IMG/VR virus record: IMGVR_UViG_3300047189_000028
From: a virus
Lineage: Duplodnaviria > Heunggongvirae > Uroviricota > Caudoviricetes
Length of the DNA stretch: 64,000 nucleotides
Direction: 5' to 3' (one strand)
Part shown: piece after piece, positions 31,727-62,605 of the stretch
Numbering within the stretch: position 1 is the first letter of the stretch
How the letters are laid out: each line of letters begins with the position of its first letter
Notes under the pieces: generated by a model
What the model was told of the DNA's origin: nothing
The model's input: the letters and a program-made list of their open reading frames with translations, nothing else
Databases searched by the model: none
Made by a program: the position numbers and the translations under genes

Positions 31727-31908
31727 TGTTTGCTAACCTTTGCCTTACACGCAGAACAAGGAGTATTCTTTTTAGTAAACGCTTTGCGGAGGATTTGGAT
31801 AACAGCAATCACCGCAGCAATGATGATAAGACCAACCGTAACGTTTTCATACACAGAGTAACCAGTTAGCATGTTAGTCCAGTGTGAAGTGAGTTGTCTC
31901 TGATTCAA
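31723..31908 (-). CDS. small membrane protein (61 aa)
   Basis: ORF track. Confidence 0.4.
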   Translation of the reverse strand: MNQRQLTSHWTNMLTGYSVYENVTVGLIIIAAVIAVIQILRKAFTKKNTPCSACKAKVSKQ

Positions 31909-32398
31909 TCTGCTTTGTTAGCTCAACAATATCATCAAATGACATACGTTCTGGATTGTCTGCTGTTTTGTAGATAGCGCTGTTCTTTTCAGCCTCAATA
32001 CACTCACAACTAATAACCCACGAGCGATCTTGTGTTGATTTACGAATGACGCTATCAGCGTACTCCGCAACGTACTCCGCAAGTCCCTCACAGCTGATCA
32101 ATGGGAATGTTCTCAGTGCAACGTGGCCGAGCTTTTCCAGCTTACGGAATGTTCCAACCATTGGATCATCTGCTTGTAGAATCACAGTGTGATCAAACCA
32201 GTATTCAAGCTTTCGCTTGATCTCTCTCATGATTCCACCGAAGTCGACAACGAATCCTTGCTTATCTAGGTTCTTGCAACCGAAGACAAACTTGAATGAA
32301 CGGTCGTATCCATGAAGTAGGTAGCAATCGCTATCACTACGATGATTGCGGTAGGCACATGGGCCAAGCTCTTTGAAATATTTTGTTGACGTATACAT
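31874..32398 (-). CDS. QueD/PTPS-like T-fold protein (second paralog)
   Basis: CYLLHGY...GFVVDFGGIMREIKRKLEYWFDHTVIL matches the PTPS/QueD pattern C..HGH...G.v.DF..l......lDH..l. The third His is replaced by Tyr. Confidence 0.5.
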   Translation of the reverse strand: MYTSTKYFKELGPCAYRNHRSDSDCYLLHGYDRSFKFVFGCKNLDKQGFVVDFGGIMREIKRKLEYWFDHTVILQADDPMVGTFRKLEKLGHVALRTFPLISCEGLAEYVAEYADSVIRKSTQDRSWVISCECIEAEKNSAIYKTADNPERMSFDDIVELTKQIESETTHFTLD

Positions 32399-32421
32399 TA
32401 TAGTTATTCCTTATCCGTATG

Positions 32422-33063
32422 TTATAATTGTACCATCCACGAGCGGCCGAATGCAACAGCTTTATCACCAAACGAATCGATGACCGCCTTAATCACGCTT
32501 GGCCAACCTATTTGCCCATCTGCATCAGCAACGAAATCATCACCGGCGAGGATTCCGCCTTTTTTGATTTTAGGTTCCCATGCTTGAATATCAGCCTTGA
32601 CACTATTGTAATCGTGGGCCGCATCAAGGTATACAAAATCAAGGGAATGATTTGCATACAGGTTTGCTGCCTGGACAGATGTGCTGTGGATAACGGTAAT
32701 GTGATCTTTAACAGGGACAATGTTCTCAATAAACAATCGCTGTGCCTCTTTACAAGGCATTAAAAATATCTCCTTGTGTCGAGAGAACGTTTCACGGAGC
32801 ATTGGATCTGTTGCAATAAGAAAATCAGCAAGGTCAGGACAAGGATTGTATCCTTCCTCTGCCCACGAATCAACACAGTCGAATTTGATTTGTTTTCCTG
32901 AGTTTATGATTTCAACTGCCATGAACGCAGCAGATCTACCCTTCCATGAACCAACTTCTACAAAATGAGAACCAGTGGGGAAACGCTCAACAGCCATCTT
33001 GTAGATGTCGTCAAACCCAAACCAAGCATCACCAAATTTTTCGTCTTTGTAGAAGTGTTCCAT
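32422..33063 (-). CDS. class I SAM-dependent methyltransferase (TylF/CmcI-like, Methyltransf_24-like)
   Basis: Motif I HFVEVGSWKGRSA, an acidic loop FDFVYLDAAHDY, and GGILAGDD. Start uncertain: ATG 33063, or 33147 with overlap. Confidence 0.55.
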   Translation of the reverse strand: MEHFYKDEKFGDAWFGFDDIYKMAVERFPTGSHFVEVGSWKGRSAAFMAVEIINSGKQIKFDCVDSWAEEGYNPCPDLADFLIATDPMLRETFSRHKEIFLMPCKEAQRLFIENIVPVKDHITVIHSTSVQAANLYANHSLDFVYLDAAHDYNSVKADIQAWEPKIKKGGILAGDDFVADADGQIGWPSVIKAVIDSFGDKAVAFGRSWMVQL

Positions 33064-33073
33064 CCAATATTTA

Positions 33074-33370
33074 CTACATCCTTGGCCAAGGTTTGCAAGG
33101 AAGAATCTCAGATTCTGGAGGTTGAGTGACACCCTGCAGCCAATCATATGCGATCGCCTTTTCTTCTTCGTTCATCAACCCTGTGGGCATAACCGGACCA
33201 TACGCATGATTAAGCAACGTCTTGAGGTTAAAAGCAAACTGCTTTGCCTCTTCGACATTCATTGAAATTTTGATCTTGTCATCAGGAGACTCAGTCATTA
33301 CAACTGCTTTATCAAAAGCACGGAGATGTTTCTGGACCCATTCAATCAGTTCACGACTTGGGGGTGGCAT
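33074..33370 (-). CDS. hypothetical protein (98 aa)
   Basis: Internal ATG (MPPPSREL...) with AGGAAATTCAA RBS. Confidence 0.45.
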   Translation of the reverse strand: MPPPSRELIEWVQKHLRAFDKAVVMTESPDDKIKISMNVEEAKQFAFNLKTLLNHAYGPVMPTGLMNEEEKAIAYDWLQGVTQPPESEILPCKPWPRM

Positions 33371-33878: not shown

Positions 33879-34191
33879 TTGGAGATTCCTTCGTCTGTTC
33901 TGACGATGCAGAGTACTTCTTGCCGTTGACAAAAATCTCATCGTCTTCGATCACAATCGAAATTCCCTCACTCTTACCAACACTAAGGTCGATTTTCTGA
34001 CCGTTGATCGTTCCCTTGATCGATGCACCTGTTGGCTTCATGTCATCGAACATAATATCAACTTCATCGAACACTTTGTCCATCTCAACGAACGTTGAGT
34101 TTATATCGAGGAACACTTGATCCATCGATGCACTAATCTTGTCCATTGACTTTGATAGGCGTTCTGTTGCTTTGTTGAGATTATCATTCAT
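33802..34191 (-). CDS. hypothetical protein (129 aa)
   Basis: ORF track. Confidence 0.45.
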   Translation of the reverse strand: MNDNLNKATERLSKSMDKISASMDQVFLDINSTFVEMDKVFDEVDIMFDDMKPTGASIKGTINGQKIDLSVGKSEGISIVIEDDEIFVNGKKYSASSEQTKESPNVQENMESYVEPSFWNRFTKWWDSE

Positions 34192-34481
34192 GGCTTGAAC
34201 TCAAATACTTTTGCACCGTATGCTTCCATAGCAAATCCCGTGACACCATTGTGGACATGAACAACTCGTCCATATCGCTTGTGGATCTTGACAACGGTGC
34301 CAAGATCAATTGCGAAGCTCAGCTCAATGAGAGCGCCGAGCGGAAGTGCCATTCCTTCTGTCTTGATTGCAACACCACTTGCAGATAAATTGACTGCCTG
34401 GCACATCTTCGAGTCTTTCCCCTCGGGTCGGACATGTACACGAGTTTTCGCGCGGTGGCGAGTATGAAGACGTCGTTCCAT
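34188..34481 (-). CDS. PilZ-domain protein (c-di-GMP-binding-like)
   Basis: RRLHTRHR (RxxxR) followed by NLSASG (D/NxSxxG) with ~20-aa spacing. Start at MERRLH (GGAGG 9 nt upstream). Confidence 0.5.
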   Translation of the reverse strand: MERRLHTRHRAKTRVHVRPEGKDSKMCQAVNLSASGVAIKTEGMALPLGALIELSFAIDLGTVVKIHKRYGRVVHVHNGVTGFAMEAYGAKVFEFKP

Positions 34482-34495
34482 TTTTACTTCCTCCG

Positions 34496-34753
34496 TCATA
34501 TCACACCATGTACCTTCCAGTACGAAAGGATTGCGACAGTAGCGCCGACAGAAATCACCGTTGTCAAAAACAGGATTGCATACGCCCACTTCTTGAACTT
34601 TGCAAATCCTTTGTAAATTTTTGGAATATCAAGTTCTTTACAAATGAACCCGAACATCCAGTTAACAACTGCAATCTGTGCGATCGTAACAACTGATAAT
34701 GCAGACACTAGTGTGCCAGCCGTGTAAATCCAATTCAGTGTCTCGTGGCTCAT
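34496..34753 (-). CDS. membrane protein (85 aa)
   Basis: ORF track. Confidence 0.45.
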   Translation of the reverse strand: MSHETLNWIYTAGTLVSALSVVTIAQIAVVNWMFGFICKELDIPKIYKGFAKFKKWAYAILFLTTVISVGATVAILSYWKVHGVI

Positions 34754-44373: not shown

Positions 44374-45018
44374 TTATTTATCCGATCTGGTGTAAGAGCT
44401 CCGACTCTTCGGTGTTTCAAACCAGTCGACCCTTGATACCTGCACATTTAGCGGTTTCATCTTTTCTTCGACAATTTGATAAATCCACTGAGCAAAGTGT
44501 TCAGAGGTGGGTAGGAATGTCGTGATAAAGAACCCTTCAAAGAATTCGCGCTCAACCCCCGACATTTTTGATACGTCAATTACATAGCCAATCGGACGAA
44601 CATGCAGGTCGTTAGCATACACAGGAACCGCATCGAGTTCTTTTTCACTGGTTGTGTTCAAAGGCTGTCGAGGGACGAATCCTGCTAAATATGGTTCGCC
44701 GCCAATCATTGGATTTGGCTTCCATGTTGGTTCGAGGTTAACAATATTGTTGAACCACGGATCATTCACATCGATAATGAATTTGTGATCGAGGTATTTG
44801 TTGAAGAATGTATTCAACCAACCCAAGTGCTTGAAGTCAGTTACCATTCCACGCTCGAGCTTGTCGCTCTCTAAGAACACATGAACTGTCGCCCCGTGAC
44901 CGTGAAGAAATCTACACTTGCATGAACTGTCGCCCGCCTCGCAAAACTCTTTCCTGAGTTGCTGGCTCCAAACACGATGTCCGTAACAGAAAGAAAATTG
45001 TTTGTCAATCGCCCACAT
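44374..45018 (-). CDS. queD: QueD/PTPS-family T-fold enzyme (6-carboxytetrahydropterin synthase-like), long form
   Basis: FSFCYGHRV...CRFLHGHGATVHVFL...GMVTDFKHL...YLDHKFI matches the QueD signature (C-x-HGH zinc ligands, GxVxDF, LDH). Confidence 0.6.
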   Translation of the reverse strand: MWAIDKQFSFCYGHRVWSQQLRKEFCEAGDSSCKCRFLHGHGATVHVFLESDKLERGMVTDFKHLGWLNTFFNKYLDHKFIIDVNDPWFNNIVNLEPTWKPNPMIGGEPYLAGFVPRQPLNTTSEKELDAVPVYANDLHVRPIGYVIDVSKMSGVEREFFEGFFITTFLPTSEHFAQWIYQIVEEKMKPLNVQVSRVDWFETPKSRSSYTRSDK

Positions 45019-46931: not shown

Positions 46932-47387
46932 TCAACGCTTATCGTTTGGAGTACCTATTCCAAATTTCTTTCTGTTCTTGTCGAAGTAGTCTGTGTTGAT
47001 CCATCTGTATGGATTATCGCGGTGTGTTTCGACTACACTCTTGAACAAAGGCGAATAGATTCGACGGAACTGTTCCTCAACATCCCACTCGTAGTGCTTT
47101 CGCTTTTCGTAGTCTACATCGTGATCGTTAAACAACACACGATTCGCGACTTCAGTCTTAGGGCATATAATCCAAAGTTCGCCCATATTCCAATAATCAC
47201 CACCAGTACATCCATATGGTTCTGTGTACCAGTGTGTTTGAACAGCAACACACGTTTTGATTTTGTGAATGCCTTTGCAGGCTACACAACGAAACAGTTT
47301 GTTCGCTTGTGCTTCTTTTAACTTACCACGAAGGGTTGCAACAACACCTTCAGCCTGTACAAGATCACGTTCTATAGTTTTGCTCAT
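46932..47387 (-). CDS. hypothetical protein (151 aa)
   Basis: ORF track; ATGA-coupled to an upstream 50-aa membrane ORF. Confidence 0.5.
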   Translation of the reverse strand: MSKTIERDLVQAEGVVATLRGKLKEAQANKLFRCVACKGIHKIKTCVAVQTHWYTEPYGCTGGDYWNMGELWIICPKTEVANRVLFNDHDVDYEKRKHYEWDVEEQFRRIYSPLFKSVVETHRDNPYRWINTDYFDKNRKKFGIGTPNDKR

Positions 47388-47540
47388 TTGTTCATCCAGT
47401 CATTACCAGTCCACTTATTATAATAGTACCGAATAGTTTGAAGGATACCAACAATCAGAATAAACCCCCCGAACATTTTAAGTGCGAGGATGATCTGGTC
47501 GGATGTGGTATACACATCATAACTAGAGTCAATCATTTGA
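47388..47540 (-). CDS. small membrane peptide (50 aa, MIDSSYDVYTTSDQIILALKMFGGFILIVGILQ...)
   Basis: Found by eye; ATGA overlap with the next gene. Confidence 0.35.
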
Positions 47541-47952
47541 TATTTTCCTGTTCCTTGATCAACCGAATAGCAGCGCGAACAACTGGCTTGTGCAAGTCAC
47601 GACCCACTGCATCGAACTCATCAACTGTCATCCATCTAACTTCTTCAGTCTCGTCACATGGATCACCAAACAAGTCTTTATCTTTGATCTTTGCAACGTG
47701 CACCGTTGTACGGCCAAGGAATGTTCCTAAGTCGTGTGCTTCAATGATATTTCCAGTGAATAGGCCAAGCTCTTCACCAGCCTCACGAAGGCCTGCCTCA
47801 AGGGCTGATTCACCTTCTTCGTGCTTTCCTTTTGCGATCTGGAATGTGTCACCACCGAACTTCGGGTCGGATGGTCGCATGAACAGCATCTTGATCTGTC
47901 CGTCTTCAACGATATATGGGATTACGCCCGAACGATCTACTTTCTTCGACAT
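47533..47952 (-). CDS. Nudix hydrolase
   Basis: Complete Nudix box GKHEEGESALEAGLREAGEELGL (GX5EX7REUXEEXGU). Confidence 0.7.
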   Translation of the reverse strand: MSKKVDRSGVIPYIVEDGQIKMLFMRPSDPKFGGDTFQIAKGKHEEGESALEAGLREAGEELGLFTGNIIEAHDLGTFLGRTTVHVAKIKDKDLFGDPCDETEEVRWMTVDEFDAVGRDLHKPVVRAAIRLIKEQENIK

Positions 47953-50332: not shown

Positions 50333-50563
50333 TTATTTAATTCCAAAATGTTTTTTGATCATTTGCATTGCTGCAAGTCGACCGTATTCTTCGTTCATTG
50401 AAGTGAGGTCATCTGATGGGTCGAGCACCTTGAGGCACTCTTCAACAACCAGTTCACCAAACTTTTCTTCCCATACCCACGGCACAGGACCATCGCTGTC
50501 CTTGTAGGTTTCACAACAATGGTCAAATGCTTGTGTTGCAAGTTCACGAATCTTTGTGTTCAT
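50333..50563 (-). CDS. hypothetical protein (76 aa)
   Basis: ORF track. Confidence 0.45.
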   Translation of the reverse strand: MNTKIRELATQAFDHCCETYKDSDGPVPWVWEEKFGELVVEECLKVLDPSDDLTSMNEEYGRLAAMQMIKKHFGIK

Positions 50564-51495
50564 TAGGTACCTACACCATTTCCAAACACACTGTTCTGGA
50601 TACGGTGGCAGTAAATGTATCCTTTATCGATACACATTTGTGCTACCTTCGCTGCAATCTCTTGTTGCTGTTCTTCCGTACAAGCTACTGGCATAATGTA
50701 TACGTCAGCATCTCGTGGAACACCAACCCCATAATATTCTTCCATTGCGTTTTCAACTTCTCTAAAGTCTACTTCATATGGGCCACAAACGAACTTGAAA
50801 TACTGTTCTGTATACAGACGACCGATTACAGCCGTTGGATGTGCTGGATCAGTTGCGTATAAAATTTGCTTTCGAGCAATCTCTGGACGAATAGCATCCT
50901 TCCAAATCTCACCACTACCAGAAATCTTTGGTGAGTTGCTCCAAATAAATCTAATCTGGCTAACAAGTGTCTGCTTGTGGGATGCCCACTCGTATAATGC
51001 TGTTAGGTCTTTATCGCGCATTGGAGCAGCACAGTTTGTTTCAATCAGAACCGTACGCATACCATGCTGATACAGTTCCTCGAGAATAGGAATCCAGAAC
51101 TTGAGTCGGATTGTAGGCTCACCCCCTGTTAGTGATAAAATGACTCGTTTGCCAGTTACTGGATTTTGGAAAGTGTTGTGTGGAAGTACTTTTAATACTT
51201 CAGCGGCAAGTGCCTTTTCATCTCCTTGCCCCCACATATGTGCGAACTTAGGATTGACAGCATATTGACTATCGCATCCTTTGTGGATAAGTGGAATGTC
51301 TTGAAGTGTCTTGAAATCTTCTGGCTCAAAATTTAGTGTTGCATACCCATCACTTTCAATAGCTTTTGTTGGATTGTTAAATCCACGACATTGAAAGTTG
51401 CAACGAGCGAAACGAATATAAACTGTTGGGTGCCCGGCATATTTGGCTTCACCTTCAATAGACATAAAGATTTCAGACCATTCATACTTTGCCAT
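50563..51495 (-). CDS. queE: QueE-like radical-SAM enzyme (7-carboxy-7-deazaguanine synthase family) with non-canonical Cys spacing
   Basis: N-terminus EIFMSIEGEAKYAGHPTVYIRFARCNFQC follows the QueE hallmark EIF.SIQGEG...P.VFIRF.GCN. The canonical CxxxCxxC is replaced by CNFQC plus a distal Cys. Confidence 0.55.
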   Translation of the reverse strand: MAKYEWSEIFMSIEGEAKYAGHPTVYIRFARCNFQCRGFNNPTKAIESDGYATLNFEPEDFKTLQDIPLIHKGCDSQYAVNPKFAHMWGQGDEKALAAEVLKVLPHNTFQNPVTGKRVILSLTGGEPTIRLKFWIPILEELYQHGMRTVLIETNCAAPMRDKDLTALYEWASHKQTLVSQIRFIWSNSPKISGSGEIWKDAIRPEIARKQILYATDPAHPTAVIGRLYTEQYFKFVCGPYEVDFREVENAMEEYYGVGVPRDADVYIMPVACTEEQQQEIAAKVAQMCIDKGYIYCHRIQNSVFGNGVGT

Positions 51496-52369
51496 TTAAT
51501 ATTTTCCTTAGTTGATCGGGTGTTTGAACAAACAGAAAATTTTCGTTTAATTCCTTAACCCAACTTATCTTTTTTTGAAGTCTTGATTTATACACTTCCG
51601 TTTTAATTCCTGAAACTTCTATCCATAATTGTACCTCAGGAATATAGAAATCACAAGTGTGATTTGTTGTACTTTGAGGGTATCGTTTTTGGTGTTCAAA
51701 CGACAACCCATTATTTTTACAAGCCTCTTGAACTACAGTATAACAAGCACTTTCAAGTATTGACCTAAATGTAATACCATTAACAGTGGTTGGTGTTCCA
51801 AATTTAGATCTGCATTTTGGACATCCAGTTGCTCTTTTTCCATGTAGTTTCGTTGGTTTTGCTTTCCACGAGTATAAGCAATATTCACATTTTACGGTAA
51901 TAGGAACATGAGATCCACAATAGTTTCCCACTCTTACAATTCCACGCTGTGCCTTTTTGAGTTTTGTATCAAATTGCTCATTAGTTAATAGGGTATTAAA
52001 AGCACAAGTGGGACATCCTTGTCTGGCAGAAATATGTTTGTTTGGTGTTATTGAAAAGGGTCCATGAAATTTACATTCGACCAATATAGGACGCAATGCT
52101 GAAGAATATTTTGTGTTTGTGTAATCATAGGTGGTTCCATGAATGCTCTTAGCTTTAGAGATGAATTCATCGGTAGTTAGTTTAATTGAGCCGGCACATT
52201 TTGGACACCCTGTCTTTTGATTTATTATTTTGAAGGGGGTAGTAGTCCAACAATGATCGCAGATGAGACACTTAAACTTTGTGGGTTTGCTAACAAAGGT
52301 AAATTCTTCAACAACTTGAATTTTTCGCTTTGTTAATATATAATCAATCTGCTTTTTTGTCCTGCTCAT
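51482..52369 (-). CDS. freestanding homing-endonuclease-like protein: multiple GCPxC zinc ribbons plus C-terminal Vsr/DUF559-like nuclease motif
   Basis: Repeated GCPKC/GCPTC; C-terminal CDFYIPEVQLWIEVSG resembles the Vsr/DUF559 core (D..iP....iEvDG). Start MSRTKKQ with AGGAGAGACACG RBS. Confidence 0.5.
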   Translation of the reverse strand: MSRTKKQIDYILTKRKIQVVEEFTFVSKPTKFKCLICDHCWTTTPFKIINQKTGCPKCAGSIKLTTDEFISKAKSIHGTTYDYTNTKYSSALRPILVECKFHGPFSITPNKHISARQGCPTCAFNTLLTNEQFDTKLKKAQRGIVRVGNYCGSHVPITVKCEYCLYSWKAKPTKLHGKRATGCPKCRSKFGTPTTVNGITFRSILESACYTVVQEACKNNGLSFEHQKRYPQSTTNHTCDFYIPEVQLWIEVSGIKTEVYKSRLQKKISWVKELNENFLFVQTPDQLRKILNGKV

Positions 52370-52437
52370 CGTGTCTCTCCTATAAATAGTATTTATAAGT
52401 AATGTGCGATAAGTTGGACACAACAATAAGGGTTATA

Positions 52438-53934
52438 ATGAGAAAGAAAGTAACGATAAACAAATCAACATTTGATGTTCCAGCCTTTTCACAAAACGAG
52501 ATTAAAAACGAAGGTAAGGTATACACTCCTGATGTGGTAACTCAGGATATTGTCGCTCGCTTTCCATATTTTGTTGATCCAAGTCGTGTTGTTGCTGATC
52601 CGTCTTGTGGTCAAGGTAATTTACTTCGTGTTGTGTTTCAACACCGACTTACGCAAACCAAGTCAGCGGATCAAGCATTTGAAAATATTAGAGGATTTGA
52701 GCTTGATCCGGTTGGTGTTCAAAGGGCTCACGAATATTTTATTGAAGAGGGTGTTTCAAAAAAACTCGTAAAGCAGAATATTGTTCAATGTAACACACTA
52801 GAACGCTACACTAAGTACACTGGAACAATTGATGATGTACTTGGAAATCCACCATATGTTAGATCGCCGGGTAATCTTCCGGCTTCAATTACAATGAACG
52901 ATAACTTAGTGGATGCGTTCTTTCAGGTTGGTATGGAATTATTGAAGCCTGGTAACGACCATCACCTTGTGTACATCGTACAGGATTCGTTTATTACAAA
53001 TGAAATTTCACCATTGCGTGAATATTTTCAACAGTTTAATATTAAGACGCTTGAACATCGTTTTGATTACTCACAAGCATTTCGTCGTCACGACATTGCT
53101 GTAGATATTGCTCTTGTTGAACTAACTAAGGGACCACAACAAGAATTTGTTGATGTTAGTAGACACATTCCATTCAAAATGCCAGCAGCATCCTTTCAAA
53201 CGAAAGAAAAATGGTTAATATATCCTTCCGTCATCAATGATCTTGCGGTTAAGCTTGGATCGGTTGGATACCCTCTGTCTTCTTTATGTACTATTAAGAA
53301 AGGACGAACAGTAAACCAGAATGGTGCTGTGCCAGCATCTTACGGAAGCACAACATTTAGTAAGAAAAAAACTAAGGAATTTAGTATTCCGGTGTTGAGC
53401 GAACCAAACACAGGTTATTTTTTTCCTGAAAGTCTAACGCCATTAGTTTTTGGCAAGTCAGTTGATAAGGTAATAGATAAACCGTTTGAACCTTTTGTTG
53501 TATTACCATACTTTACAAGTAAATTTCGGTTCTGTCTTATTGAACAAGACCTACTTACGACTCCATTGCTCTATACACTATCAGGTCCCAATGTAAAGTG
53601 GTTACTTCCTATTCTTAATTGCTCAGCAGTTGATTTTATGATCCGGTATCACACAAAGAGTCGTGACACTGGATACGAATTTAAGAGTTCAACATTTGAT
53701 AGGATTATCATTCCTACACTTGATTCTAAGGGAAGAAAACAAATGCTCCACCTCGTAGAGCTTGTTCGTTCTGGAAAGATAAGTAAAGAAGACTGTGATC
53801 GCTATGTAATGGATAATGTCTTCAAGTTATCCAAAGAAGAACAGGAACTAATTGAAAAATGTAAGGTCTTCTGGTTTAAGAAGAATGTCAAGACTTTACT
53901 TGCTGATCCTGATTTTTTAGCGACATTATCTTAG
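52438..53934 (+). CDS. gamma-class N6-adenine DNA methyltransferase with C-terminal target-recognition region
   Basis: Motif X VYTPDVV, motif I ADPSCGQGNLL, motif IV GNPPY, in that order. Confidence 0.7.
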   Translation: MRKKVTINKSTFDVPAFSQNEIKNEGKVYTPDVVTQDIVARFPYFVDPSRVVADPSCGQGNLLRVVFQHRLTQTKSADQAFENIRGFELDPVGVQRAHEYFIEEGVSKKLVKQNIVQCNTLERYTKYTGTIDDVLGNPPYVRSPGNLPASITMNDNLVDAFFQVGMELLKPGNDHHLVYIVQDSFITNEISPLREYFQQFNIKTLEHRFDYSQAFRRHDIAVDIALVELTKGPQQEFVDVSRHIPFKMPAASFQTKEKWLIYPSVINDLAVKLGSVGYPLSSLCTIKKGRTVNQNGAVPASYGSTTFSKKKTKEFSIPVLSEPNTGYFFPESLTPLVFGKSVDKVIDKPFEPFVVLPYFTSKFRFCLIEQDLLTTPLLYTLSGPNVKWLLPILNCSAVDFMIRYHTKSRDTGYEFKSSTFDRIIIPTLDSKGRKQMLHLVELVRSGKISKEDCDRYVMDNVFKLSKEEQELIEKCKVFWFKKNVKTLLADPDFLATLS

Positions 53935-54799
53935 CTGTAATTGTATTGACATAGAATTCGCGGAGTGTTTCACCTTCCATAAAGCCTTTTGAAATATCGT
54001 GAATGTCAACCGGACGAAGAATTCGTTTCTGTTCAAATGTAGTAGTTGGATCGTTATCCAACGCTTTCTGTTCTTCAATAGAGAACTCTACATATGCGTT
54101 TGCGATATGATAGTACGATTTATCAAGCATTGTTTGGAGGAAGCTGAGATCATAACCAATCCAGGACACAAACAAATCATCAAGTTCGCCCTTAGTACCA
54201 ACACTCTTACCTGATACCATTGAAAAGCGTTCCGTAATATTCTGTAGTTCACTAATGCGTTTGTTTTCTTCGTGAAAAATATTTGTTGTTTTATAGGTGA
54301 TTCGGATATCCTCATTACCTGACTTTTTCTTGCGAGGGTGAATAACCTTTAACTCAGGTCCAAAATCTTTCAGAATTGACTGAACCCACTTTAACAGGAG
54401 TTTATCTAATGCTTGTGATCTTGAACTGTTCTTACCTTTGCTGGCACCCTTTTGAACGGAAGCAATATATGCCCATTCCTCAATGAATCCGCGAGGAACT
54501 GTGGTTGAGTATGCTCTAACATCATCAAACAACTTCAATTCTTTGGCTGCAGCCTTGACCTTGTCAAATTCTGAGTCTGCTACCAACACAACATATAGAC
54601 AACAATTTAGACTATCAACTTCGTATACAGATTTCAGCACTTCTTTATCAAAAGGAGCATCTTCAAAATCAATAATAGCAATATCGTGTTTTTTGTTTTT
54701 GGGTTGAATCACGAAACTAATCTGAACATCGCCTATAGTATATCGCTTCCAAGAGCGAGGACGACGACCTAAGTTACAGGGAGTGATTGTAGCAGTCAT
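53888..54799 (-). CDS. hypothetical protein convergent with the MTase; candidate restriction endonuclease
   Basis: Own TTGACT-N16-TATAAT promoter. Convergent 3'-overlapping arrangement with the MTase. No recognisable catalytic motif. Confidence 0.3.
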   Translation of the reverse strand: MTATITPCNLGRRPRSWKRYTIGDVQISFVIQPKNKKHDIAIIDFEDAPFDKEVLKSVYEVDSLNCCLYVVLVADSEFDKVKAAAKELKLFDDVRAYSTTVPRGFIEEWAYIASVQKGASKGKNSSRSQALDKLLLKWVQSILKDFGPELKVIHPRKKKSGNEDIRITYKTTNIFHEENKRISELQNITERFSMVSGKSVGTKGELDDLFVSWIGYDLSFLQTMLDKSYYHIANAYVEFSIEEQKALDNDPTTTFEQKRILRPVDIHDISKGFMEGETLREFYVNTITAKIMSLKNQDQQVKS

Positions 54800-55112: not shown

Positions 55113-55291
55113 TAGACCACATCCTTCTTTTTAATCGTTCCACATTGCTCGCATTGTAGAACGTATCGTGTTCCAACTTTACATAATTCACCACCATCTT
55201 CTGGATGGCGATAAACTTTAAACACAGTCTCATCAATGGTTTTCCACTTATGAGCGTGTCCAAAAAGTAGTAGTTGAATTACTTTCCACAT
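55112..55291 (-). CDS. small zinc-ribbon protein (59 aa)
   Basis: TAATG coupling with the upstream gene; CKVG...CEQCG. Confidence 0.35.
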   Translation of the reverse strand: MWKVIQLLLFGHAHKWKTIDETVFKVYRHPEDGGELCKVGTRYVLQCEQCGTIKKKDVV

Positions 55292-55695
55292 TACAAAATT
55301 TCCTGAATCTTACTCACAACTTCGTCAAGTGAATTGACAATTGTTGTAGAGTGATAGATTAACCATGGTGATAGTCTTGCATCCCTTGATGTCCATACCA
55401 CAACTGGAATACCAAGCGTCCAAGCATAGAATACTTCCATACTTGTACCAACTGATGGCTTGTCGTAGTTTACGAGAACAATATCACAGTTACGGATATC
55501 ACGCTTATCAAGATCAACAATCTCACGATAATTGGAAAGTTCTTTACCACGATAGTCCCTCTTCATTGGATCTACGGAAGCAGGAAAATGTATCTTTACT
55601 ACTTCGCGCCAATTCCTTGCTTCTTCATTCGTGCAGCCATTAATAGGACCACACAAATAAACTTTAATTGTTTCCGGATTCATTTCAATCTCCAC
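55291..55695 (-). CDS. nucleoside 2-deoxyribosyltransferase / DNPH1(Rcl)-family protein
   Basis: KVYLCGPI...D...GTSMEVFYAWTLGIPVVVW matches the family pattern (YLAGP...GTAMELGYA.ALGKPV) with the catalytic Glu in GTSME. Confidence 0.55.
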   Translation of the reverse strand: MEIEMNPETIKVYLCGPINGCTNEEARNWREVVKIHFPASVDPMKRDYRGKELSNYREIVDLDKRDIRNCDIVLVNYDKPSVGTSMEVFYAWTLGIPVVVWTSRDARLSPWLIYHSTTIVNSLDEVVSKIQEIL

Positions 55696-56624: not shown

Positions 56625-57866
56625 TTACTTCTTATCACCAGCCTTTACAGATAGATCAAGATTCAAATCTTTGGCAGCCTTGGCTGTCATGATTTCCATA
56701 AACGTCTGTGCACCATTTGCACCAGCACCCGAACCACCACCAAACACTGTGTTTGGTACGATGTTACCCTGGTACTTGGCAAACGCGTCTGCCCACGCAG
56801 ACTGCACTTCCTTGTATGTCTCAAGCTTCTGCGTCAACGCGCCGTCAGCATTAATGACAAGACGCTTCTTTTCAGCATCGCCCTGTCCTTCGAGAATCTG
56901 TTGCTGCTTGTAAGCTTCAGCCTGCTGAGCTGCAAGGATCGCAACCTGCTTGTTCTTCTCGGCAAGAGCAATTTCCTTCGCGTTGATTGTTTCCTGTTCC
57001 CACTTTGCCTTCGCGGCGTTGGCTTCACCCTGCTTAGCAGTTGTGATCGCATCCTGTTCAGCACGACGAGCGTTCGCCTGTGAAATCTGAACCTGAGTCG
57101 TCGCCTTCTGTCGCTCAGCAATCTGACCTTCGACAATATCGTTGTAGCGAATCTTGTTGATCGTTACAGGATACAGACGAATGCCGTGATCAGTAATCTG
57201 CGACGGAGCTGAACGAGCAGGATGACCATCAGTACCCACAACGATCTCAACAATCTTTGCTTCCTTGTCGGTGTTGGTCAGCGGATCGTGCTGAATAACA
57301 CTCTTCGTGTGAGTCAGGTACGGACCATTGACGAGCTGGTCATCAATGTACTGAGGGATCTCAGGACGACGTTCAGCGGACGATTCCGTTGACGACATCG
57401 TAGGACCGACAGTGTAAACAACCTTCTCAATCATTGGACGAATCAGCTGCTGCTCAATAGCTTCGAAGCTACCGAACTCGCGATGGATCTGGATCACCTT
57501 TGCAGTGTCGAGTGGCATATCCCACGAAACGACGCCGGATAAGTGCGCAGTACCACCATCGTTAAATCGAGTCTCAATCGACTCATCGACCTTACTGCCC
57601 TGATCCTTCGAAGAGCTGAAGGAATACTGAGCACGACGAGGATACTTCGTGTACTTGCCGAATCCCAACCACTTCCAGCCAGAGTCCGTGTATACGGAAA
57701 GACTGCCGCTGACTGGGCTCTGGACAACCATGATCTCATGAGCATCCACGTTTTCATACATATTCATCGCCATGACCGGAATACCGATCACTACGACCGC
57801 TGCCACCACGATTCCAAGAATGCCGAATCGGGAAAGAAGCGAAGTGCGACCTTCAGTTGTAGACAT
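56625..57866 (-). CDS. SPFH/band-7 domain membrane protein with long C-terminal coiled coil
   Basis: N-terminal TM, band-7-like core, Ala/Gln-rich coiled coil. Confidence 0.55.
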   Translation of the reverse strand: MSTTEGRTSLLSRFGILGIVVAAVVVIGIPVMAMNMYENVDAHEIMVVQSPVSGSLSVYTDSGWKWLGFGKYTKYPRRAQYSFSSSKDQGSKVDESIETRFNDGGTAHLSGVVSWDMPLDTAKVIQIHREFGSFEAIEQQLIRPMIEKVVYTVGPTMSSTESSAERRPEIPQYIDDQLVNGPYLTHTKSVIQHDPLTNTDKEAKIVEIVVGTDGHPARSAPSQITDHGIRLYPVTINKIRYNDIVEGQIAERQKATTQVQISQANARRAEQDAITTAKQGEANAAKAKWEQETINAKEIALAEKNKQVAILAAQQAEAYKQQQILEGQGDAEKKRLVINADGALTQKLETYKEVQSAWADAFAKYQGNIVPNTVFGGGSGAGANGAQTFMEIMTAKAAKDLNLDLSVKAGDKK

Positions 57867-58248: not shown

Positions 58249-59178
58249 TTACTTCTTTGTAGGAGTAACGACCGGGATTTCGTACCAAGGCAGAACACCA
58301 TGGTCATTCGCATCAACCGACTGCCAGTTCGGCGAACCGCTGTCCTGAAGCTCAGCAACGTGCGTCACGAAGCAGTCACGGAAGTGCTTCTGAGCAAGGA
58401 CTTTGGCAGGCGTGCTGTACTTGCGTGTCAGCAAGGTAGCAATCGGAGCCAGAGTCTTGAGTGGGCCGCTCGTGATACCAGGATAGTTGATCGTAGCTGG
58501 ACGATACACACCACTAACACGGCTAGCAATTGACTCACCAATCGGAAGGATCTTGACTTCACCACGAGCAAACTTCGTGATGTTCGGCAGAGGAGCCGCA
58601 CCCACGAAAATTGCAGCAGCAATGTCGCCGCTCTTCAGAGCAGCAATCACCTGGTCACCAGTGTCGTAAGGAACAACGGTGAACCCACCCTCGCCCTGAC
58701 CCTGCAGAATGCGTGCCGTATAGACACCACCACCAGCAGCACCGACCCTGTAGCCACGCACATCAGCGAGGCTGTTAAACTGCGCCTTGCCAAAGCTGAA
58801 CGTACCGTTCTGACCAGTCTTCGACTCAACAAGAGCGATCACATGGATCGGCTCAGGGTAGAGAGCGACGAGCGTCTGGAACTTCGCATACGAACTGTCA
58901 GCCTGCGCATTGGCAAAGTAGACGTCGCTGTGAAGGAATGCGGCCTGTGCCTTGTTATTCACGAGAGCGTCGAGGTTACCAGGCGCGCCGCCGGTCACGC
59001 CGCGAGCCTGCTGAATGTTGAAATCGTCTGTCGAACAGACACCGATAATCTCACTCAGCATCTTCTGATACGTACCGCTTGAACTATCTGCAGCAATCGT
59101 GATGCTGCTGCCGTTGTCGTCCGCGAAGGCCGCAGTCGACAGAGCGACGAGGAACAATGATGCAATAAACTTCTTCAT
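58249..59178 (-). CDS. periplasmic solute-binding protein, TAXI-family TRAP-receptor-like
   Basis: Signal peptide. ITIAADSSSGTYQKM...AAFLHSDVYFA...YPEPIHVIAL...VRGYRVGAAGGGVYTARIL...GDIAAAIFVGAAP...VKILPI follows the TAXI pattern. Confidence 0.55.
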   Translation of the reverse strand: MKKFIASLFLVALSTAAFADDNGSSITIAADSSSGTYQKMLSEIIGVCSTDDFNIQQARGVTGGAPGNLDALVNNKAQAAFLHSDVYFANAQADSSYAKFQTLVALYPEPIHVIALVESKTGQNGTFSFGKAQFNSLADVRGYRVGAAGGGVYTARILQGQGEGGFTVVPYDTGDQVIAALKSGDIAAAIFVGAAPLPNITKFARGEVKILPIGESIASRVSGVYRPATINYPGITSGPLKTLAPIATLLTRKYSTPAKVLAQKHFRDCFVTHVAELQDSGSPNWQSVDANDHGVLPWYEIPVVTPTKK

Positions 59179-60114: not shown

Positions 60115-60128
60115 ATAAAACTCCTAAA

Positions 60129-60620: not shown

Positions 60621-60684
60621 TTTTCAACTCCTATAAAGAGGGGCGCACGGAGCGCCCTCTTTATTTTGTTGCCCACCAGTTTGA

Positions 60685-61212
60685 TTAGGCCTTTTCGCGC
60701 CAGATCATCAACGTCTTCGAAGTCTTGTCCTTCTTGACCTTGACAGTACCGCCGCCAACAGTATCAAAGCGCTTACTCTGACGCAGGACAGCGATTGAAA
60801 CGCCGTGCGTCTTGGCAAACTCGTCTGCATTTGTTGGGGAGGCTGGGATCGAAGAGAAAGCCTGAGTGATCTTATCACCCTTGCGGCCACGCTTCTTCTG
60901 TTCGCGAACCTTAGCCGTTGCGGTCTCAGGTGCTGCCTTTGTGGAAGTAACTGTTGGCTTCGTACGAACCGGAGCCTTTGTGGTCGTTACCGTCGTCGAT
61001 TCGTCACTGGCTTCGCTTGAAGCGAACAGAGTGCCATATGAACCAACATCAAGTGTATTCGAAAGACTGAACACACCGGCCTTTAGCTGATTGCGTGCAA
61101 CATCAAGCTCAGGCTGAGTGATGCCGAACGCTTCACAAGCCTGCTCGTCTGTTGGCTTGTAATGATTGATCAATGTCAATCGATCATTCCATGTAAATGA
61201 CTTACCTTTCAT
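60685..61212 (-). CDS. AT-hook (KKRGRKG) protein, putative DNA-binding
   Basis: RGRKG AT-hook-like; HTH-like FGITQPELDVARNQL. Confidence 0.45.
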   Translation of the reverse strand: MKGKSFTWNDRLTLINHYKPTDEQACEAFGITQPELDVARNQLKAGVFSLSNTLDVGSYGTLFASSEASDESTTVTTTKAPVRTKPTVTSTKAAPETATAKVREQKKRGRKGDKITQAFSSIPASPTNADEFAKTHGVSIAVLRQSKRFDTVGGGTVKVKKDKTSKTLMIWREKA

Positions 61213-61307
61213 ATTAAAACCTCATTGTGAATGTGATGGAGATTACCTCCCCATGGTGAACACTATACCGTTATCCCTAAACTTTGTCAACCATAATCGT
61301 GAAAACA

Positions 61308-61679
61308 CTACTTTTTTGGGAATTTGACGACCGAAGGCTCGCCCTGTTGATTGAGAACTTCCTCAGGATTCTGCAAGGTTTGCTGAAATTCCTTGACCCC
61401 AATCCAGAACATTTCAACCATACGATTCATGCGAGCAGTCGGATCTTTGAAGTTGCGCAGTTCTTGTTGAATGCGCCAATTGAACGCGTGAGCTCTTTGC
61501 TGGCGTTCAGGGGTGAGAGTTGAAATGTACTCTTCCATGATTTCTTTCACCTTCGCTTCCGCTGCGACAGGATCAGTATCGAATAACGTACTAAGTTCAT
61601 CAAATGTTACATTCATCAAGGTACTCCTAGGGGAGATATTAATGAGGCGAACGAATAACTTAAGTACATCTTCTTTCAT
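61308..61679 (-). CDS. hypothetical protein (123 aa)
   Basis: ORF track. Confidence 0.45.
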   Translation of the reverse strand: MKEDVLKLFVRLINISPRSTLMNVTFDELSTLFDTDPVAAEAKVKEIMEEYISTLTPERQQRAHAFNWRIQQELRNFKDPTARMNRMVEMFWIGVKEFQQTLQNPEEVLNQQGEPSVVKFPKK

Positions 61680-61897
61680 TCAATGGTACAGAGGATCACA
61701 CCTCTGTTGCCGAGTTGAACTCGTGGTGCAAGTCCATAGCCTTCCAATAGCTTGACTAGTTCATTGCGAATCACTCCATGACCAACAATAAACTCAGCAT
61801 CTTCTGTCTTGCGTGAAGAGCGAATCGATCCAACAACATCTTCAGCATCACAAAGTGCTTCGTGAAGTCTAAAAGCGTGATAGTCGCGACGAATCAT
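61676..61897 (-). CDS. Smr-domain-like small protein
   Basis: DYHAFRLHEAL...FIVGHG...LEGYG loosely follows the Smr pattern (DLHG..v.eA...iItGkG). Confidence 0.35.
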   Translation of the reverse strand: MIRRDYHAFRLHEALCDAEDVVGSIRSSRKTEDAEFIVGHGVIRNELVKLLEGYGLAPRVQLGNRGVILCTIE

Positions 61898-62155
61898 TTA
61901 GTTCACCGGAAAGAGAACAACGCAACGCTTCTTCTTGAGGATTTTCTTCCATTCGGCTTCATCCATGCCAGCGGCATCTGCGGTCCATTCGGTTGAGTAG
62001 ACTTCTCCTGACCACGTAGTGTCAGGAATATAGACGGAGTTGGTATAGACATCCGAAAGAGGAGAGTATCCATTGCCTTCGCTATCTTTCTGAAGGATTA
62101 CGTCGGCGTCTTGCTTGCATTCAAGCAAGGCTGCAATCAATGCTTTGACTTTCAT
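61898..62155 (-). CDS. hypothetical protein (85 aa)
   Basis: ORF track. Confidence 0.4.
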   Translation of the reverse strand: MKVKALIAALLECKQDADVILQKDSEGNGYSPLSDVYTNSVYIPDTTWSGEVYSTEWTADAAGMDEAEWKKILKKKRCVVLFPVN

Positions 62156-62605
62156 TTACAGCTCCCAAGGAAATTCAATCCAGTTTGCATCTTTCGGAAT
62201 CGTCTGCCAAATATAGTCTGGTGTGATTACAGCGCCTTCCTTATGATAAAGAGCAGCCGTTCGAACTACATTTCCGTTCAGACGATAAAACTTGTCGACT
62301 TCTTTCATAGTATACCCTGAATCACAGATATCGTCAACGATTAGGATATCCCACGTGATTGGGAACTCTGGCAACACATTTTCGTACTCTTTATACTCTC
62401 CGTTTCCTTTCTTTGATGAGTATGACACTGGAAACATTTTGACCTGGAGCAGATGTGACATAATTACGGCGGGAACTAGGCCACCACGCGCAAGGCCAAT
62501 AATCGCTTTTGGCTTGTAGTTGGTATCTTGTGACACTTTAATTGAAAGGAACGCAGCCCCCTTCTCTACTTGTGTCCACGATGGATGTACTAATGTTGCT
62601 TTCAT
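62156..62605 (-). CDS. gpt: xanthine-guanine phosphoribosyltransferase (Gpt)-like type I PRTase
   Basis: IIGLARGGLVPAVIM, PRPP loop ILIVDDICDSGYT and C-terminal NWIEFPWEL parallel E. coli Gpt (IIAVSRGGLVPGALL; FIVIDDLVDTGGT; TWIEQPWDM). Confidence 0.65.
   Translation of the reverse strand: MKATLVHPSWTQVEKGAAFLSIKVSQDTNYKPKAIIGLARGGLVPAVIMSHLLQVKMFPVSYSSKKGNGEYKEYENVLPEFPITWDILIVDDICDSGYTMKEVDKFYRLNGNVVRTAALYHKEGAVITPDYIWQTIPKDANWIEFPWEL

Follow-up and report, generated by a model that had tools for sequence, protein, structure and literature searches.

The DNA analyzed here, a window of 64 kb, is one piece of the genome of an uncultivated T4-like jumbo phage, which encodes RIIA and RIIB and whose relatives range from 180 to 350 kb in genome size. 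It carries some of the genes of what is predicted to be a phage system of a known type, in which every guanine of the DNA is replaced by 7-deazaguanine. All seven open reading frames listed by an initial annotation were recovered where it had placed them, all on the minus strand, and Pfam and PHROG profile matches bear out the superfamilies that it had named for the seven proteins. These genes are given below together with an inserted block and a synteny anchor.

31874..32398, minus strand: QueD (CPH4 synthase), phage type, CxxLHGY motif; PF01242 (PTPS), E 5.5e-12
32422..33147, minus strand: SAM methyltransferase; Methyltransf_24, E 5e-17
44374..45018, minus strand: second QueD/PTPS paralog, canonical CxxxHGH motif, insertion of ~90 aa; PF01242, E 7e-25
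47533..47952, minus strand: Nudix hydrolase, intact Nudix box; PF00293, E 4e-11
50563..51495, minus strand: QueE-like radical-SAM enzyme (CDG synthase); PHROG 'QueE-like radical SAM', full length, E 6e-40
51482..54799, mixed strands: inserted block of three genes separating NDT from QueE; Pfam and PADLOC matches
51482-52426, minus strand: HNH/DUF4379 endonuclease-like gene of the inserted block
52402-53934, plus strand: N6-adenine DNA methyltransferase of the inserted block
53888-54799, minus strand: 303-aa ORF of the inserted block
55291..55695, minus strand: DNPH1/nucleoside 2-deoxyribosyltransferase (NDT)-family protein; PF05014, E 2e-12
62156..62605, minus strand: Gpt-like purine phosphoribosyltransferase (PRTase); PF00156, E 5e-17
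63110..63986, minus strand: RNase T-like exonuclease and an 82-aa ORF, the synteny anchor; PF00929

The two T-fold proteins both match the PHROG 'QueD-like' family (E ~1e-31). The one at 31874..32398 is the ortholog of the sole QueD of phages phiST, immuto, StAshley and BUCT-ZZ01 (phmmer 1e-18 to 1e-27), with which it has the CxxLHGY motif in common, and QueD of this type is found in 108 phage records. The paralog at 44374..45018 reads CRFLHGH at the motif, and is homologous to the QueD found in Campylobacter CP220-like phages, Pseudomonas PA5oct-like phages and a Vibrio jumbo phage. The QueE is 51% identical to the protein annotated as QueE in Xanthomonas phage X1 and 70-78% identical to that of the relatives; its cluster cysteines are arranged as C32-x3-C36-x37-C74, followed by DSQY, and the NCBIfam QueE models cover only the first 30 residues of the protein, with a score far under the cut-off.

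In the relative L015, only two small genes come between NDT and QueE, and Nudix follows QueE. Counterparts of the three genes of the inserted block were sought in L012 and L015 and none was found, the position being occupied in L012 by an unrelated DUF7487 gene. The NDT-like protein, which is likely an accessory gene of the system, keeps the catalytic Glu and a DNPH1-like CGPING loop and is 80-86% identical to its counterparts in relatives; its homologs lie within 7-deazaguanine clusters in Aminobacter phage Erebus, where the gene stands between QueD and FolE, and in Edwardsiella phage ZHS. The Nudix hydrolase, possibly another accessory gene, is 70-78% identical to that of relatives, adjoins QueE in L015 and lies one gene from it in L022, and its homologs in isolated phages belong to jumbo phages with no evident 7-deazaguanine context. 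For the methyltransferase, the start of which may be 33147 as well as the 33063 first annotated, no link to the 7-deazaguanine system was found.

The Gpt-like PRTase is an accessory gene of DpdA3-type systems. Among solved structures it comes closest to archaeal purine PRTases and to E. coli XGPRT (PDB 1vdm, 4z1o, 1a95), the top NCBIfam model is a xanthine PRTase at 56.6 bits (cut-off 138), and the Gpt residues D88/D89, D92, K115 and W134 are kept. Homologs occur in 14 of 50,697 phage records, compared with the 108 that have the CxxLHGY-type QueD, and 12 of these, spread over four independent lineages, belong to 7-deazaguanine phages. The gene adjoins FolE, QueE or QueD in BUCT-ZZ01, StAshley, immuto and L021, and DpdA3 lies within 7 kb of it in all six metagenomic contexts, while one fecal phage scaffold carries the PRTase with no detectable 7-deazaguanine genes. 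The initial annotation had grouped these salvage genes with the 7-deazaguanine genes, and the grouping exceeds chance, as both the PRTase and the NDT-like gene recur within or beside FolE/QueD/QueE clusters in several unrelated lineages, and are conserved together with QueE and Nudix in the lineage of the window phage itself. A functional tie of the PRTase and the NDT-like protein to the 7-deazaguanine genes is supported. The purine-salvage genes are specific companions of 7-deazaguanine systems, of which no mention was found in the searchable literature; the main text of Cui 2023 (PMC10516641) does not mention a phosphoribosyltransferase.

As the initial annotation had noted, no DpdA, QueC or FolE is detectable within the window, either when every called ORF was compared with Pfam and PHROG or by tblastn and phmmer with proteins from six phages and from relatives, which gave no match to DpdA, DpdA3, DpdL, FolE, FolE2 or QueC-like proteins; a DpdA3 profile HMM found nothing in the window at E<=10. 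The step from this absence to a system independent of DpdA was, however, contradicted by the relatives. Directly upstream of the exonuclease-PRTase block, each of the syntenic relatives examined has a dUTPase/DCD-like gene, DpdA3 and DpdL, the last two at 1.6-3.4 kb upstream of the PRTase. The order in L012, L014, L015 and L022 is DpdL, DpdA3, DCD-like, small ORF, exonuclease, PRTase, with the following positions:

L012: DpdL 5877-6290, DpdA3 6554-7363, PRTase 10001-10465
L014: DpdL, DpdA3 and PRTase arranged as in L012
L015: DpdL 4348-4725, DpdA3 4670-5527, PRTase 7111-7560
L022: DpdA3 homolog upstream of the PRTase

The PRTases of these relatives are 44-76% identical to that of the window, with one more, at 90%, placed among them by inference, and the exonuclease anchor is 69-74% identical. 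The DpdL homologs bear the published LxxxHRHxF signature of DpdL, which has been proposed as the CDG decarboxylase (Cui 2023, PMC10516641). A profile HMM of the relatives' DpdA3 matches the DpdA3 of immuto (6e-17) and phiST (2e-12), and an AlphaFold model (pLDDT 95) matches TGT structures with probability 1.0. MazG-like pyrophosphatases and P-loop nucleotide kinases are encoded in DpdA3 clusters as well, and in L012 a FolE2 (PF02649) lies by DpdL and DpdA3 and is adjoined by a dNK/AAA_28 kinase.

By synteny, DpdA3 would lie ~0.5-1.5 kb past the window end (base 64000). The PRTase that is 90% identical to that of the window is on a 4,790-bp contig, as is a DpdA3 homolog, and in ten cases a PRTase homolog and a DpdA3 homolog are on contigs of equal length in bp. 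For the 74,841-bp source contig no DpdA3 match appeared among the best 120 of 897, and this contig may end before DpdA3 or the gene may be absent. The initial annotation had regarded a DpdA-QueC-FolE cluster elsewhere in the genome, joined to canonical specificity of the Gpt-like and Nudix enzymes, as contrary to its proposal; the relatives come close to this in spirit, with DpdA3 and, in one case, FolE2. No QueC was found in the window or in the ~17-20 kb examined per relative, an absence which is expected for a system of the DpdL (decarboxylase) type.

On this sequence evidence, the phage is predicted to carry a phiST-type DpdA3/DpdL system that replaces dG by 2'-deoxy-7-deazaguanosine (dDG). 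GTP would be converted by a FolE2 encoded outside the window, and the QueD at 31874-32398, perhaps also that at 44374-45018, would yield 7-carboxy-7-deazaguanine (CDG) together with QueE (50563-51495). Just outside the window, DpdL would decarboxylate CDG to 7-deazaguanine, and the TGT-fold DpdA3 would swap this base for guanine, with complete replacement of dG by dDG as the predicted end state. The PRTase, the NDT-like protein and perhaps the Nudix enzyme would be co-evolving accessory enzymes that manage purine traffic. To this account as a whole, system and accessory enzymes together, we give an even chance.

For these accessory enzymes we prefer the recycling of guanine, which both the base exchange and dGMP would supply, via GMP into GTP, the substrate of FolE. 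This is favored because phages whose final bases differ share one PRTase family (dDG in phiST and formyl-dPreQ1 in immuto; Cui 2023, PMC10516641), StAshley being a PRTase-bearing phage with a QueC-encoding pathway; because the residues of Gpt that contact N7 and O6 (D92, K115) are kept; and because the PRTase repeatedly adjoins FolE, the GTP-consuming entry enzyme. Against it, hydrolysis of dGMP by a DNPH1-like enzyme, or of dGTP by the Nudix, would defeat its purpose if dGTP has to be incorporated first.

A doubtful course, though one of appreciable weight, amends the model of the initial annotation and places the modification before replication. The PRTase would put ribose phosphate on CDG or 7-deazaguanine, as TubE does, or, in a variant, the NDT-like enzyme or DpdA3 would swap the base at the deoxynucleoside or deoxynucleotide level; kinases would phosphorylate the product up to the triphosphate, dGTP would be cleared by Nudix, MazG or dUTPase-like enzymes, and the polymerase would write 7-deazaguanine directly, with DpdA3 auxiliary or acting on mononucleotides. 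Full base replacement is typical of pre-replicative systems (T4 hmC, S-2L Z). In the DpdA3 phages that were measured, dG was undetectable by LC-MS, that is, fully replaced, and DpdA3 activity on DNA has never been demonstrated, the assays having failed (Cui 2023, PMC10516641). The same paper, in a passage citing Crippen, places the ADG nucleoside in the cytoplasm of CP220-infected cells, and the modified-dGTP route, which the initial annotation had called undescribed, goes back to 2019, as a passage of Hutinet 2019 (PMC6884629), citing Crippen 2019, proposes it. A PRTase acting on CDG has been demonstrated in tubercidin synthesis, where TubE belongs to a QueC-less cluster with a decarboxylase and a Nudix enzyme (PMC6112128); a purine PRTase can thus be CDG-specific, which counts against the guanine reading. 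Given the MazG/PRA-PH-like pyrophosphatases and the dNMP or P-loop kinases in DpdA3 clusters, a nucleotide-pool mechanism fits at least as well, and the kinase by FolE2 in L012 and the DNPH1-like features of the NDT-like protein point the same way; kinases and MazG are, however, common in phage replication modules, where their adjacency may be incidental. Moreover, nearly all PRTase contexts examined contain the TGT-fold DpdA3, and enzymes of the TGT type exchange bases in polynucleotides; the N7-protonating residue is invariant in the PRTase family; this one family would have to take differently substituted bases, unless tailoring happens later on nucleotides or DNA; and 7-deaza-GTP made at the ribonucleotide level would enter RNA too.

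It is improbable that the PRTase, the NDT-like gene and the Nudix gene serve ordinary nucleotide metabolism, with no particular tie to 7-deazaguanine, and lie close because replication and nucleotide genes of phages tend to cluster. Their spacing of 3-30 kb in the window, the context of the Nudix homologs in isolated phages, the PRTase-bearing fecal scaffold and several NDT-like homologs in phages with no known or checked 7-deazaguanine genes, such as PhiCh1, would agree with it, but the rarity of the PRTase and its concentration in 7-deazaguanine phages, often directly adjacent to the pathway genes, the constant proximity of DpdA3, the place of the NDT-like gene in Erebus and the gene order of L015 all argue otherwise. 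Least probable by far is that QueD and QueE merely raise the supply of queuosine-tRNA precursor for the host and leave the phage DNA unmodified, an option raised by Hutinet 2019 (PMC6884629) for phages with pathway genes but no DpdA; DpdA3 and DpdL stand beside the block in relatives, preQ0 cannot be made given the lack of QueC, and measured phages with the same gene set have dG fully replaced (Cui 2023, PMC10516641).

The phage PRTase resembles E. coli Gpt and the archaeal PRTases in its type I fold signature and its PRPP motif, DDxxD(S/T)G, and it has residues equivalent to the catalytic Asp92, Lys115 and Trp134, but its family differs from Gpt in the purine pocket, where D140 is replaced by E in 67 of 67 proteins and Q137 by F in 64 of 67. 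With the 2-aminoadenine (Z) logic of PurZ/MazZ/DatZ, only the concept is shared, namely that pool-shaping enzymes accompany complete base replacement. Near DpdA3 clusters there are genes of the MazG/PRA-PH-like, dUTPase-like and Nudix kinds, but the phage system lacks a PurZ-like synthetase and has no demonstrated dGTPase or dGMP hydrolase, and it possesses the base-exchange enzyme DpdA3.

In the tubercidin pathway of Streptomyces, TubC/A/B lead to CDG, TubE is the CDG-PRPP phosphoribosyltransferase, TubF the decarboxylase and TubG a Nudix enzyme (PMC6112128). This pathway is likewise QueC-less and stops at CDG, and it too combines a purine PRTase of the PF00156 family with a decarboxylase and a Nudix hydrolase; TubE has 194 aa and the phage PRTase, of the short Gpt/archaeal type, ~150 aa. 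On the other hand, the tubercidin decarboxylase is of the UbiD family and that of the phage system is the T-fold DpdL, the product is a free nucleoside antibiotic, its GMP-reductase step has no phage counterpart, and the phage systems add the TGT-fold DpdA3.

Finally, the phiST system (Cui 2023, PMC10516641) has the CxxLHGY-subtype QueD and QueE with no QueC, like the window phage, and the relatives have a DpdL with the same motif and a DpdA3 of the same family. It also encodes a homologous Gpt-like PRTase (CGPG_00045), and an NTP-pyrophosphatase-like gene lies by DpdA3 or DpdL in both. However, phiST is a 79-kb Cbastvirus (a Cellulophaga phage) and not a T4-like jumbo phage, and in the window phage the genes are scattered by insertions, with DpdA3 and DpdL not within the window. 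FolE2 replaces FolE in one relative, the window phage has a second QueD paralog, of the Campylobacter-phage type, and a QueE of the long CX3CX37C type, and in its lineage the DNPH1/NDT-like gene and Nudix are conserved with QueE.

The seven genes from which the initial annotation had assembled a nucleotide-level route of 7-deazaguanine modification are all real ORFs on the minus strand of the window, and family searches confirmed the superfamily stated for each of them:

31874-32398, minus strand, QueD-like T-fold protein
32422-33147, minus strand, TylF-like methyltransferase
44374-45018, minus strand, QueD-like T-fold protein
47533-47952, minus strand, Nudix hydrolase
50563-51495, minus strand, QueE-like radical-SAM protein
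55291-55695, minus strand, DNPH1/NDT-like protein (NDT)
62156-62605, minus strand, Gpt-like phosphoribosyltransferase (PRTase)

The absence of DpdA, QueC, and FolE from the window was likewise confirmed by Pfam/PHROG scans, by tblastn and phmmer searches with reference proteins, and by a DpdA3 family HMM. Family HMMs and tblastn were added to the Pfam-negative scans because Pfam cannot detect DpdA3, and no DpdA3 was found within the window by either (HMM E<=10). Neither QueC nor a PAPS-reductase-like match was found in the window or in the 17-20 kb viewed in each relative, and the pathway would therefore stop at 7-carboxy-7-deazaguanine (CDG), while the GTP cyclohydrolase step could be served by a host enzyme. 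The methyltransferase was rejected as a component of the pathway, given that its homologs occur in cyanophages and mycobacteriophages, without any connection to 7-deazaguanine.

No nucleotide-level relatives of the window were recovered by megablast among 50,697 phage records, and viral and metagenomic contigs searched for exact 40-mers gave no match. A 74,841-bp JGI contig encodes a protein with 100% identity to its PRTase, and the Logan run SRR35915816 contains short fragments with proteins identical to those of the window. Given that syntenic relatives are found on contigs of 178, 241, and 347 kb, as well as on a MAG contig with the T4 major capsid protein Gp23, the window is from an uncultivated lineage of T4-like jumbo phages. 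It also encodes homologs of RIIA (41291-43525) and RIIB (40088-41287), the latter with a C-terminal extension matching the NUMOD/HTH-like DNA-binding modules of homing endonucleases, and most of its other ORFs have no family match in the Pfam/PHROG scans.

One other feature of the window is a block of approximately 55% G+C (8000-30000) in a phage with approximately 44% G+C elsewhere, in which the high-GC3 genes diverge from approximately 16.4 kb, lying on the minus strand at 8.8-16.3 kb and on the plus strand at 16.5-29.3 kb. This block may have been acquired horizontally, or it may be an early region that evolves differently. Nearly all of its genes are ORFans, with these exceptions:

9442-10299, SprT-like protein
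13601-14755, DEAH/ResIII helicase
19395-19937, HNH-like gene of low GC

The initial annotation had proposed an undescribed pathway that dispenses with DpdA, and this proposal is not supported for the lineage, given that the relatives carry DpdA3 just upstream of the PRTase, in a position that falls past the end of the window. The arrangement can be followed in L015, one of three syntenic metagenomic relatives with flanking genes examined here, whose PRTase, QueE, NDT, and Nudix proteins are 76%, 78%, 80%, and 70% identical, respectively, to those of the window:

Gene order in L015
4348-4725, DpdL, first in the order
4670-5527, DpdA3
5536-6090, dUTPase/DCD-like gene, followed by one small ORF
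6295-6939, RNase T-like exonuclease
7111-7560, PRTase
12925-13317, NDT, downstream of the PRTase and followed by two small ORFs
13778-14695, QueE
14768-15184, Nudix

Two further genes of L015, the closest relative, are missing from the window, that is, a second radical-SAM gene right after the Nudix gene (15181-16050; PHROG 27142, 4e-99) and an HD_4 phosphohydrolase (9670-10284).

The DpdL-DpdA3 pair is also found 2.6-4 kb upstream of the PRTase in L012 (a 347-kb scaffold) and L014 (a 178-kb contig), and a DpdA3 homolog occupies the same position in L022, the MAG contig, where no DpdL was detected. In these four relatives, DpdA3 lies 1.6-3.4 kb upstream of the PRTase. A DpdL homolog is present in L014, and the DpdL signature LxxxHRHxF reads LRDTHRHVF in L012 and LRDLHRHIF in L015. 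An HMM trained on 120 homologs of the relatives' 265-285-aa protein matches the DpdA3 of the phages immuto (6e-17) and phiST (2e-12), and the top PDB matches of the AlphaFold model of this protein (pLDDT 95.4) are solely tRNA-guanine transglycosylases, which confirms a TGT fold for the predicted structure. An X1-type DpdA had no match linked to the contigs of the relatives in a large protein collection, so the lineage uses DpdA3 and not the X1/BUCT-ZZ01 type. L012 also carries a FolE2 (PF02649, E 3e-51) approximately 9 kb upstream of the PRTase, beside a dNK/AAA_28 kinase.

In the window itself, an 82-aa ORF ending at 63986 is, by synteny, the last gene before the dUTPase-like gene, and DpdA3 is therefore expected at approximately 64.5-65.4 kb, roughly 0.5 kb beyond the end of the window. 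The longest contigs of ten PRTase homologs are equal in size to those of ten DpdA3 homologs. A PRTase 90% identical to that of the window is found on a Logan contig of 4,790 bp, and the DpdA3 homolog P0189 is likewise found on a contig of 4,790 bp. By synteny, the phage of the window very probably encodes both DpdA3 and DpdL, and this is not put more strongly because no DpdA3 match on a 74,841-bp contig was present among the best 120 of 897 matches.

The surroundings of DpdA3 in the relatives also include GGDEF-EAL genes, which are found in all four relatives within a few kb of DpdA3 or the PRTase, upstream in L012, L014, and L015, and on the downstream side of the PRTase in L022. A PilZ-domain protein is encoded in the window itself (34188-34589), and c-di-GMP signalling genes appear to be a feature of this lineage of jumbo phages:

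L012 2861-4294, GGDEF-EAL protein
L014 1818-3848, GGDEF-EAL protein
L015 1931-3319, GGDEF-EAL protein
L022 8321-10717, GGDEF-EAL protein

The QueD and QueE needed to make CDG, as required by systems of the DpdA3/DpdL type (Cui 2023), are present in the window. The phages phiST, immuto, StAshley, and BUCT-ZZ01 each have a single QueD, to which the smaller T-fold protein (31874-32398) is orthologous (phmmer 1e-18 to 1e-27). It has the motif CxxLHGY in common with them (CYLLHGY in the window), and for this reason its reading as a DpdL-like decarboxylase was rejected. In this subtype, which is the only QueD in phages with fully modified DNA, a Tyr takes the place of the final His in the CxxxHGH signature of QueD, a residue described as a zinc ligand. 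The other T-fold protein (44374-45018) has the canonical CxxxHGH (CRFLHGH) and an insertion of approximately 90 residues, and clusters with QueD proteins from Campylobacter CP220-like and Pseudomonas PA5oct-like phages; the DpdL signature is found in neither of the two. The QueE-like protein has a full-length match to the PHROG QueE and shares 51% identity with that of Xanthomonas phage X1, with radical-SAM cysteines at C32-x3-C36-x37-C74 followed by DSQY, and falls below the NCBIfam equivalog cut-offs. The Campylobacter phages, 15 of the 119 phage records matched, have a QueE of this subfamily and no other, and their DNA carries dADG (Cui 2023, PMC10516641).

The PRTase reached 56.6 bits against the NCBIfam xanthine-guanine PRTase equivalog NF006613, which has a cut-off of 138, aligns with both E. 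coli Gpt and archaeal purine PRTases, and is, as judged from its sequence, a type I purine PRTase rather than a Gpt equivalog. In an alignment of 67 family members (P0001-P0063 and four isolate phages) with E. coli Gpt, the PRPP motif, the catalytic Asp (Gpt D92, invariant), and the 6-oxopurine contacts K115 and W134, whose roles are known from XGPRT and HGPRT structures, are all kept, and the purine pocket differs in D140, replaced by E in 67/67, and Q137, replaced by F in 64/67. These two changes could mark an altered base specificity.

Homologs of this PRTase were found by tblastn in only 14 of the 50,697 phage records, i.e., five phiST-group Cellulophaga phages, four immuto Flavobacterium phages, two Brevundimonas phages, Synechococcus phage BUCT-ZZ01, and two fecal scaffolds. 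No dG was detected in the phiST-group and immuto phages, which have one modified nucleoside instead (Cui 2023, PMC10516641). In the phiST phage, the PRTase adjoins a DNMK-like kinase and lies three genes from RNR, and the DpdA3 cluster includes a P-loop kinase and a MazG-like gene, while the Tara contigs L019 and L020 carry the PRTase, RNR, and DpdA3. The order of the genes in other PRTase-bearing loci is as follows:

Gene order around the PRTase
BUCT-ZZ01: QueE, PRTase, hypothetical, QueD, FolE, glycosyltransferase-like, X1-type DpdA, DpdL
StAshley: dNMP kinase, FolE, PRTase; QueC, QueD, QueE, and a weak DpdA3-like protein 8 kb off
immuto: QueD, hypothetical, QueE, two hypotheticals, PRTase, FolE, DUF4494, PRA-PH/MazG-like, hypothetical, DpdA3, hypothetical, DpdN, kinase, QueF
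L021: kinase, PRTase, hypothetical, QueD, FolE; further on NT5C, DpdN, kinase, DpdA3, QueF

The sole exception is the fecal scaffold MT835497 (55.7 kb), which has a PRTase homolog at E of about 1e-17 to 1e-19 and no detectable QueD, QueE, FolE, or DpdA3. The presence of a 7-deazaguanine pathway in four of the five independent PRTase lineages is far beyond chance, because the CxxLHGY type of QueD is found in only 108 phage records (~0.2% of the total). The context of a cluster with FolE, QueD, and QueE, similar to that of the TubE/ToyH-type PRTases, occurs in four phage lineages, and this rare Gpt-like PRTase is almost exclusively a companion of 7-deazaguanine phages, mostly those with DpdA3.

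A second gene of this kind encodes the DNPH1/NDT-like protein, which keeps the catalytic Glu and has an N-terminal loop (CGPING) nearer to that of DNPH1 (GSIRGG) than to that of NDT (GAGWF). The protein is short, lacks the NDT-type C-terminal tail, and has no PDB sequence match. Among its 14 phage matches, the best is in Edwardsiella phage ZHS (43% identity), in the order QueC, FolE, DpdA, three hypotheticals, NDT, and DNA polymerase genes, and Aminobacter phage Erebus has the order QueE, hypothetical, QueC, QueD, NDT, FolE, two hypotheticals, and DpdA. The salvage enzymes had all been assigned to the pathway, and this assignment stands for the PRTase and the NDT, which recur in 7-deazaguanine clusters, whereas the Nudix hydrolase is linked only by being conserved and by lying next to QueE in L015 and L022, and its homologs in isolated phages lend no support to a 7-deazaguanine link. 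The Nudix box is intact, and the best PDB matches are ADP-ribose pyrophosphatases (E 2.5e-4). The close link between the 7-deazaguanine clusters of phages and these two genes, for the Gpt-like PRTase and the DNPH1/NDT-like protein, appears to be new, with nothing on it found in the literature searched; the term “phosphoribosyl” is nowhere in the main text of Cui 2023 (PMC10516641), though phiST and immuto carry the PRTase.

The dispersal of the gene set in the window is due in part to a block inserted between NDT and QueE (51482-54799), which contains an HNH/DUF4379 endonuclease-like gene, a type II/Eco57I N6-adenine DNA methyltransferase encoded on the other strand, and an ORF of 303 aa that weakly matches the N-terminal part of a type IIG restriction enzyme. 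All three are without a counterpart in both L012 and L015, and the block could be a mobile or restriction-modification-like cassette. Two other genes lie between the PRTase and NDT:

56625-57866, lipoprotein-like gene (PHROG 11908/200)
58249-59178, TAXI-family TRAP solute-binding-protein-like gene

MazG/PRA-PH-like NTP pyrophosphatases and P-loop/dNMP kinases also recur in DpdA3 clusters:

MazG/PRA-PH-like or kinase genes
phiST: 46381-46860, 47175-47762, 27602-28210
immuto: 21338-21862
StAshley: 13941-14606
L021: 6439-6993, 11215-11769

The phiST gene between DpdA3 and DpdL, CGPG_00066, has been treated as of unknown function and matches AAA_18 kinase models.

Based on the knowledge of these families and on Cui 2023, the core pathway would begin with the conversion of GTP by FolE2 or a host FolE, after which QueD would make CPH4, QueE would make CDG, DpdL would turn CDG into 7-deazaguanine, and DpdA3 would install this base in place of guanine, yielding DNA with 2'-deoxy-7-deazaguanosine (dDG) that would resist restriction. 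As each exchange would free one guanine and use one GTP-derived base, the Gpt-like enzyme, together with host or phage kinases, could close the guanine loop at the cost of PRPP, and the DNPH1-like enzyme could supply further guanine from dGMP. This core pathway with guanine recycling by the accessory enzymes is the reading we prefer, with roughly even confidence, given that it leaves each enzyme in the usual role of its family, that one PRTase family serves phages with differing final bases, that the adjacency of the PRTase and FolE is repeated, and that the residues contacting N7 and O6 are kept.

On the other hand, the systems of complete replacement (DpdA3-type) may act on the nucleotide pool rather than on finished DNA, as a guanine counterpart of the Z-genome strategy. 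In this case, the Gpt-like PRTase would put the base on a sugar phosphate, as TubE does, or DpdA3 or the NDT-like enzyme would exchange the guanine of dGMP or dG, the kinases of the cluster would phosphorylate the product, and the polymerase would incorporate the 7-deaza nucleotide, while MazG, dUTPase-like or Nudix enzymes and DNPH1-like enzymes would remove dGTP and dGMP, and the PRTase would return guanine to GTP. TubE demonstrates that a purine PRTase can be specific for CDG, in a cluster with a decarboxylase and a Nudix enzyme and no QueC (PMC6112128), kinases and MazG-like genes recur in DpdA3 clusters, and a 7-deaza nucleoside has been seen in infected cells, according to an account relayed in Cui 2023 (PMC10516641). 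In addition, the DpdA3 phages that have been measured show complete replacement, and DpdA3 is the family tied to 100% replacement, yet it is not known to act on DNA (Cui 2023, PMC10516641). This reading appears less probable than guanine recycling. The initial annotation had presented its pathway as undescribed; a route through modified dGTP was already proposed in 2019, in a passage of PMC6884629, and the ability of a PRTase to act on CDG was already known in 2018 (PMC6112128).

According to Cui 2023 (PMC10516641), every 7-deazaguanine phage has a DpdA, and insertion is post-replicative. The gene set of the window is, as such, ordinary; what it provides is the extension of the probable dDG-type system to uncultivated jumbo phages of a widespread lineage, and an accessory-gene association that makes the mechanism of complete guanine replacement directly testable. 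The system is very probably of the DpdA3/DpdL kind and is closest to that of phiST, from which it differs in its jumbo-phage host, in the FolE2 found in one relative where phiST has a FolE, in its two QueD paralogs and long QueE subtype, and in the conserved DNPH1-like and Nudix genes.
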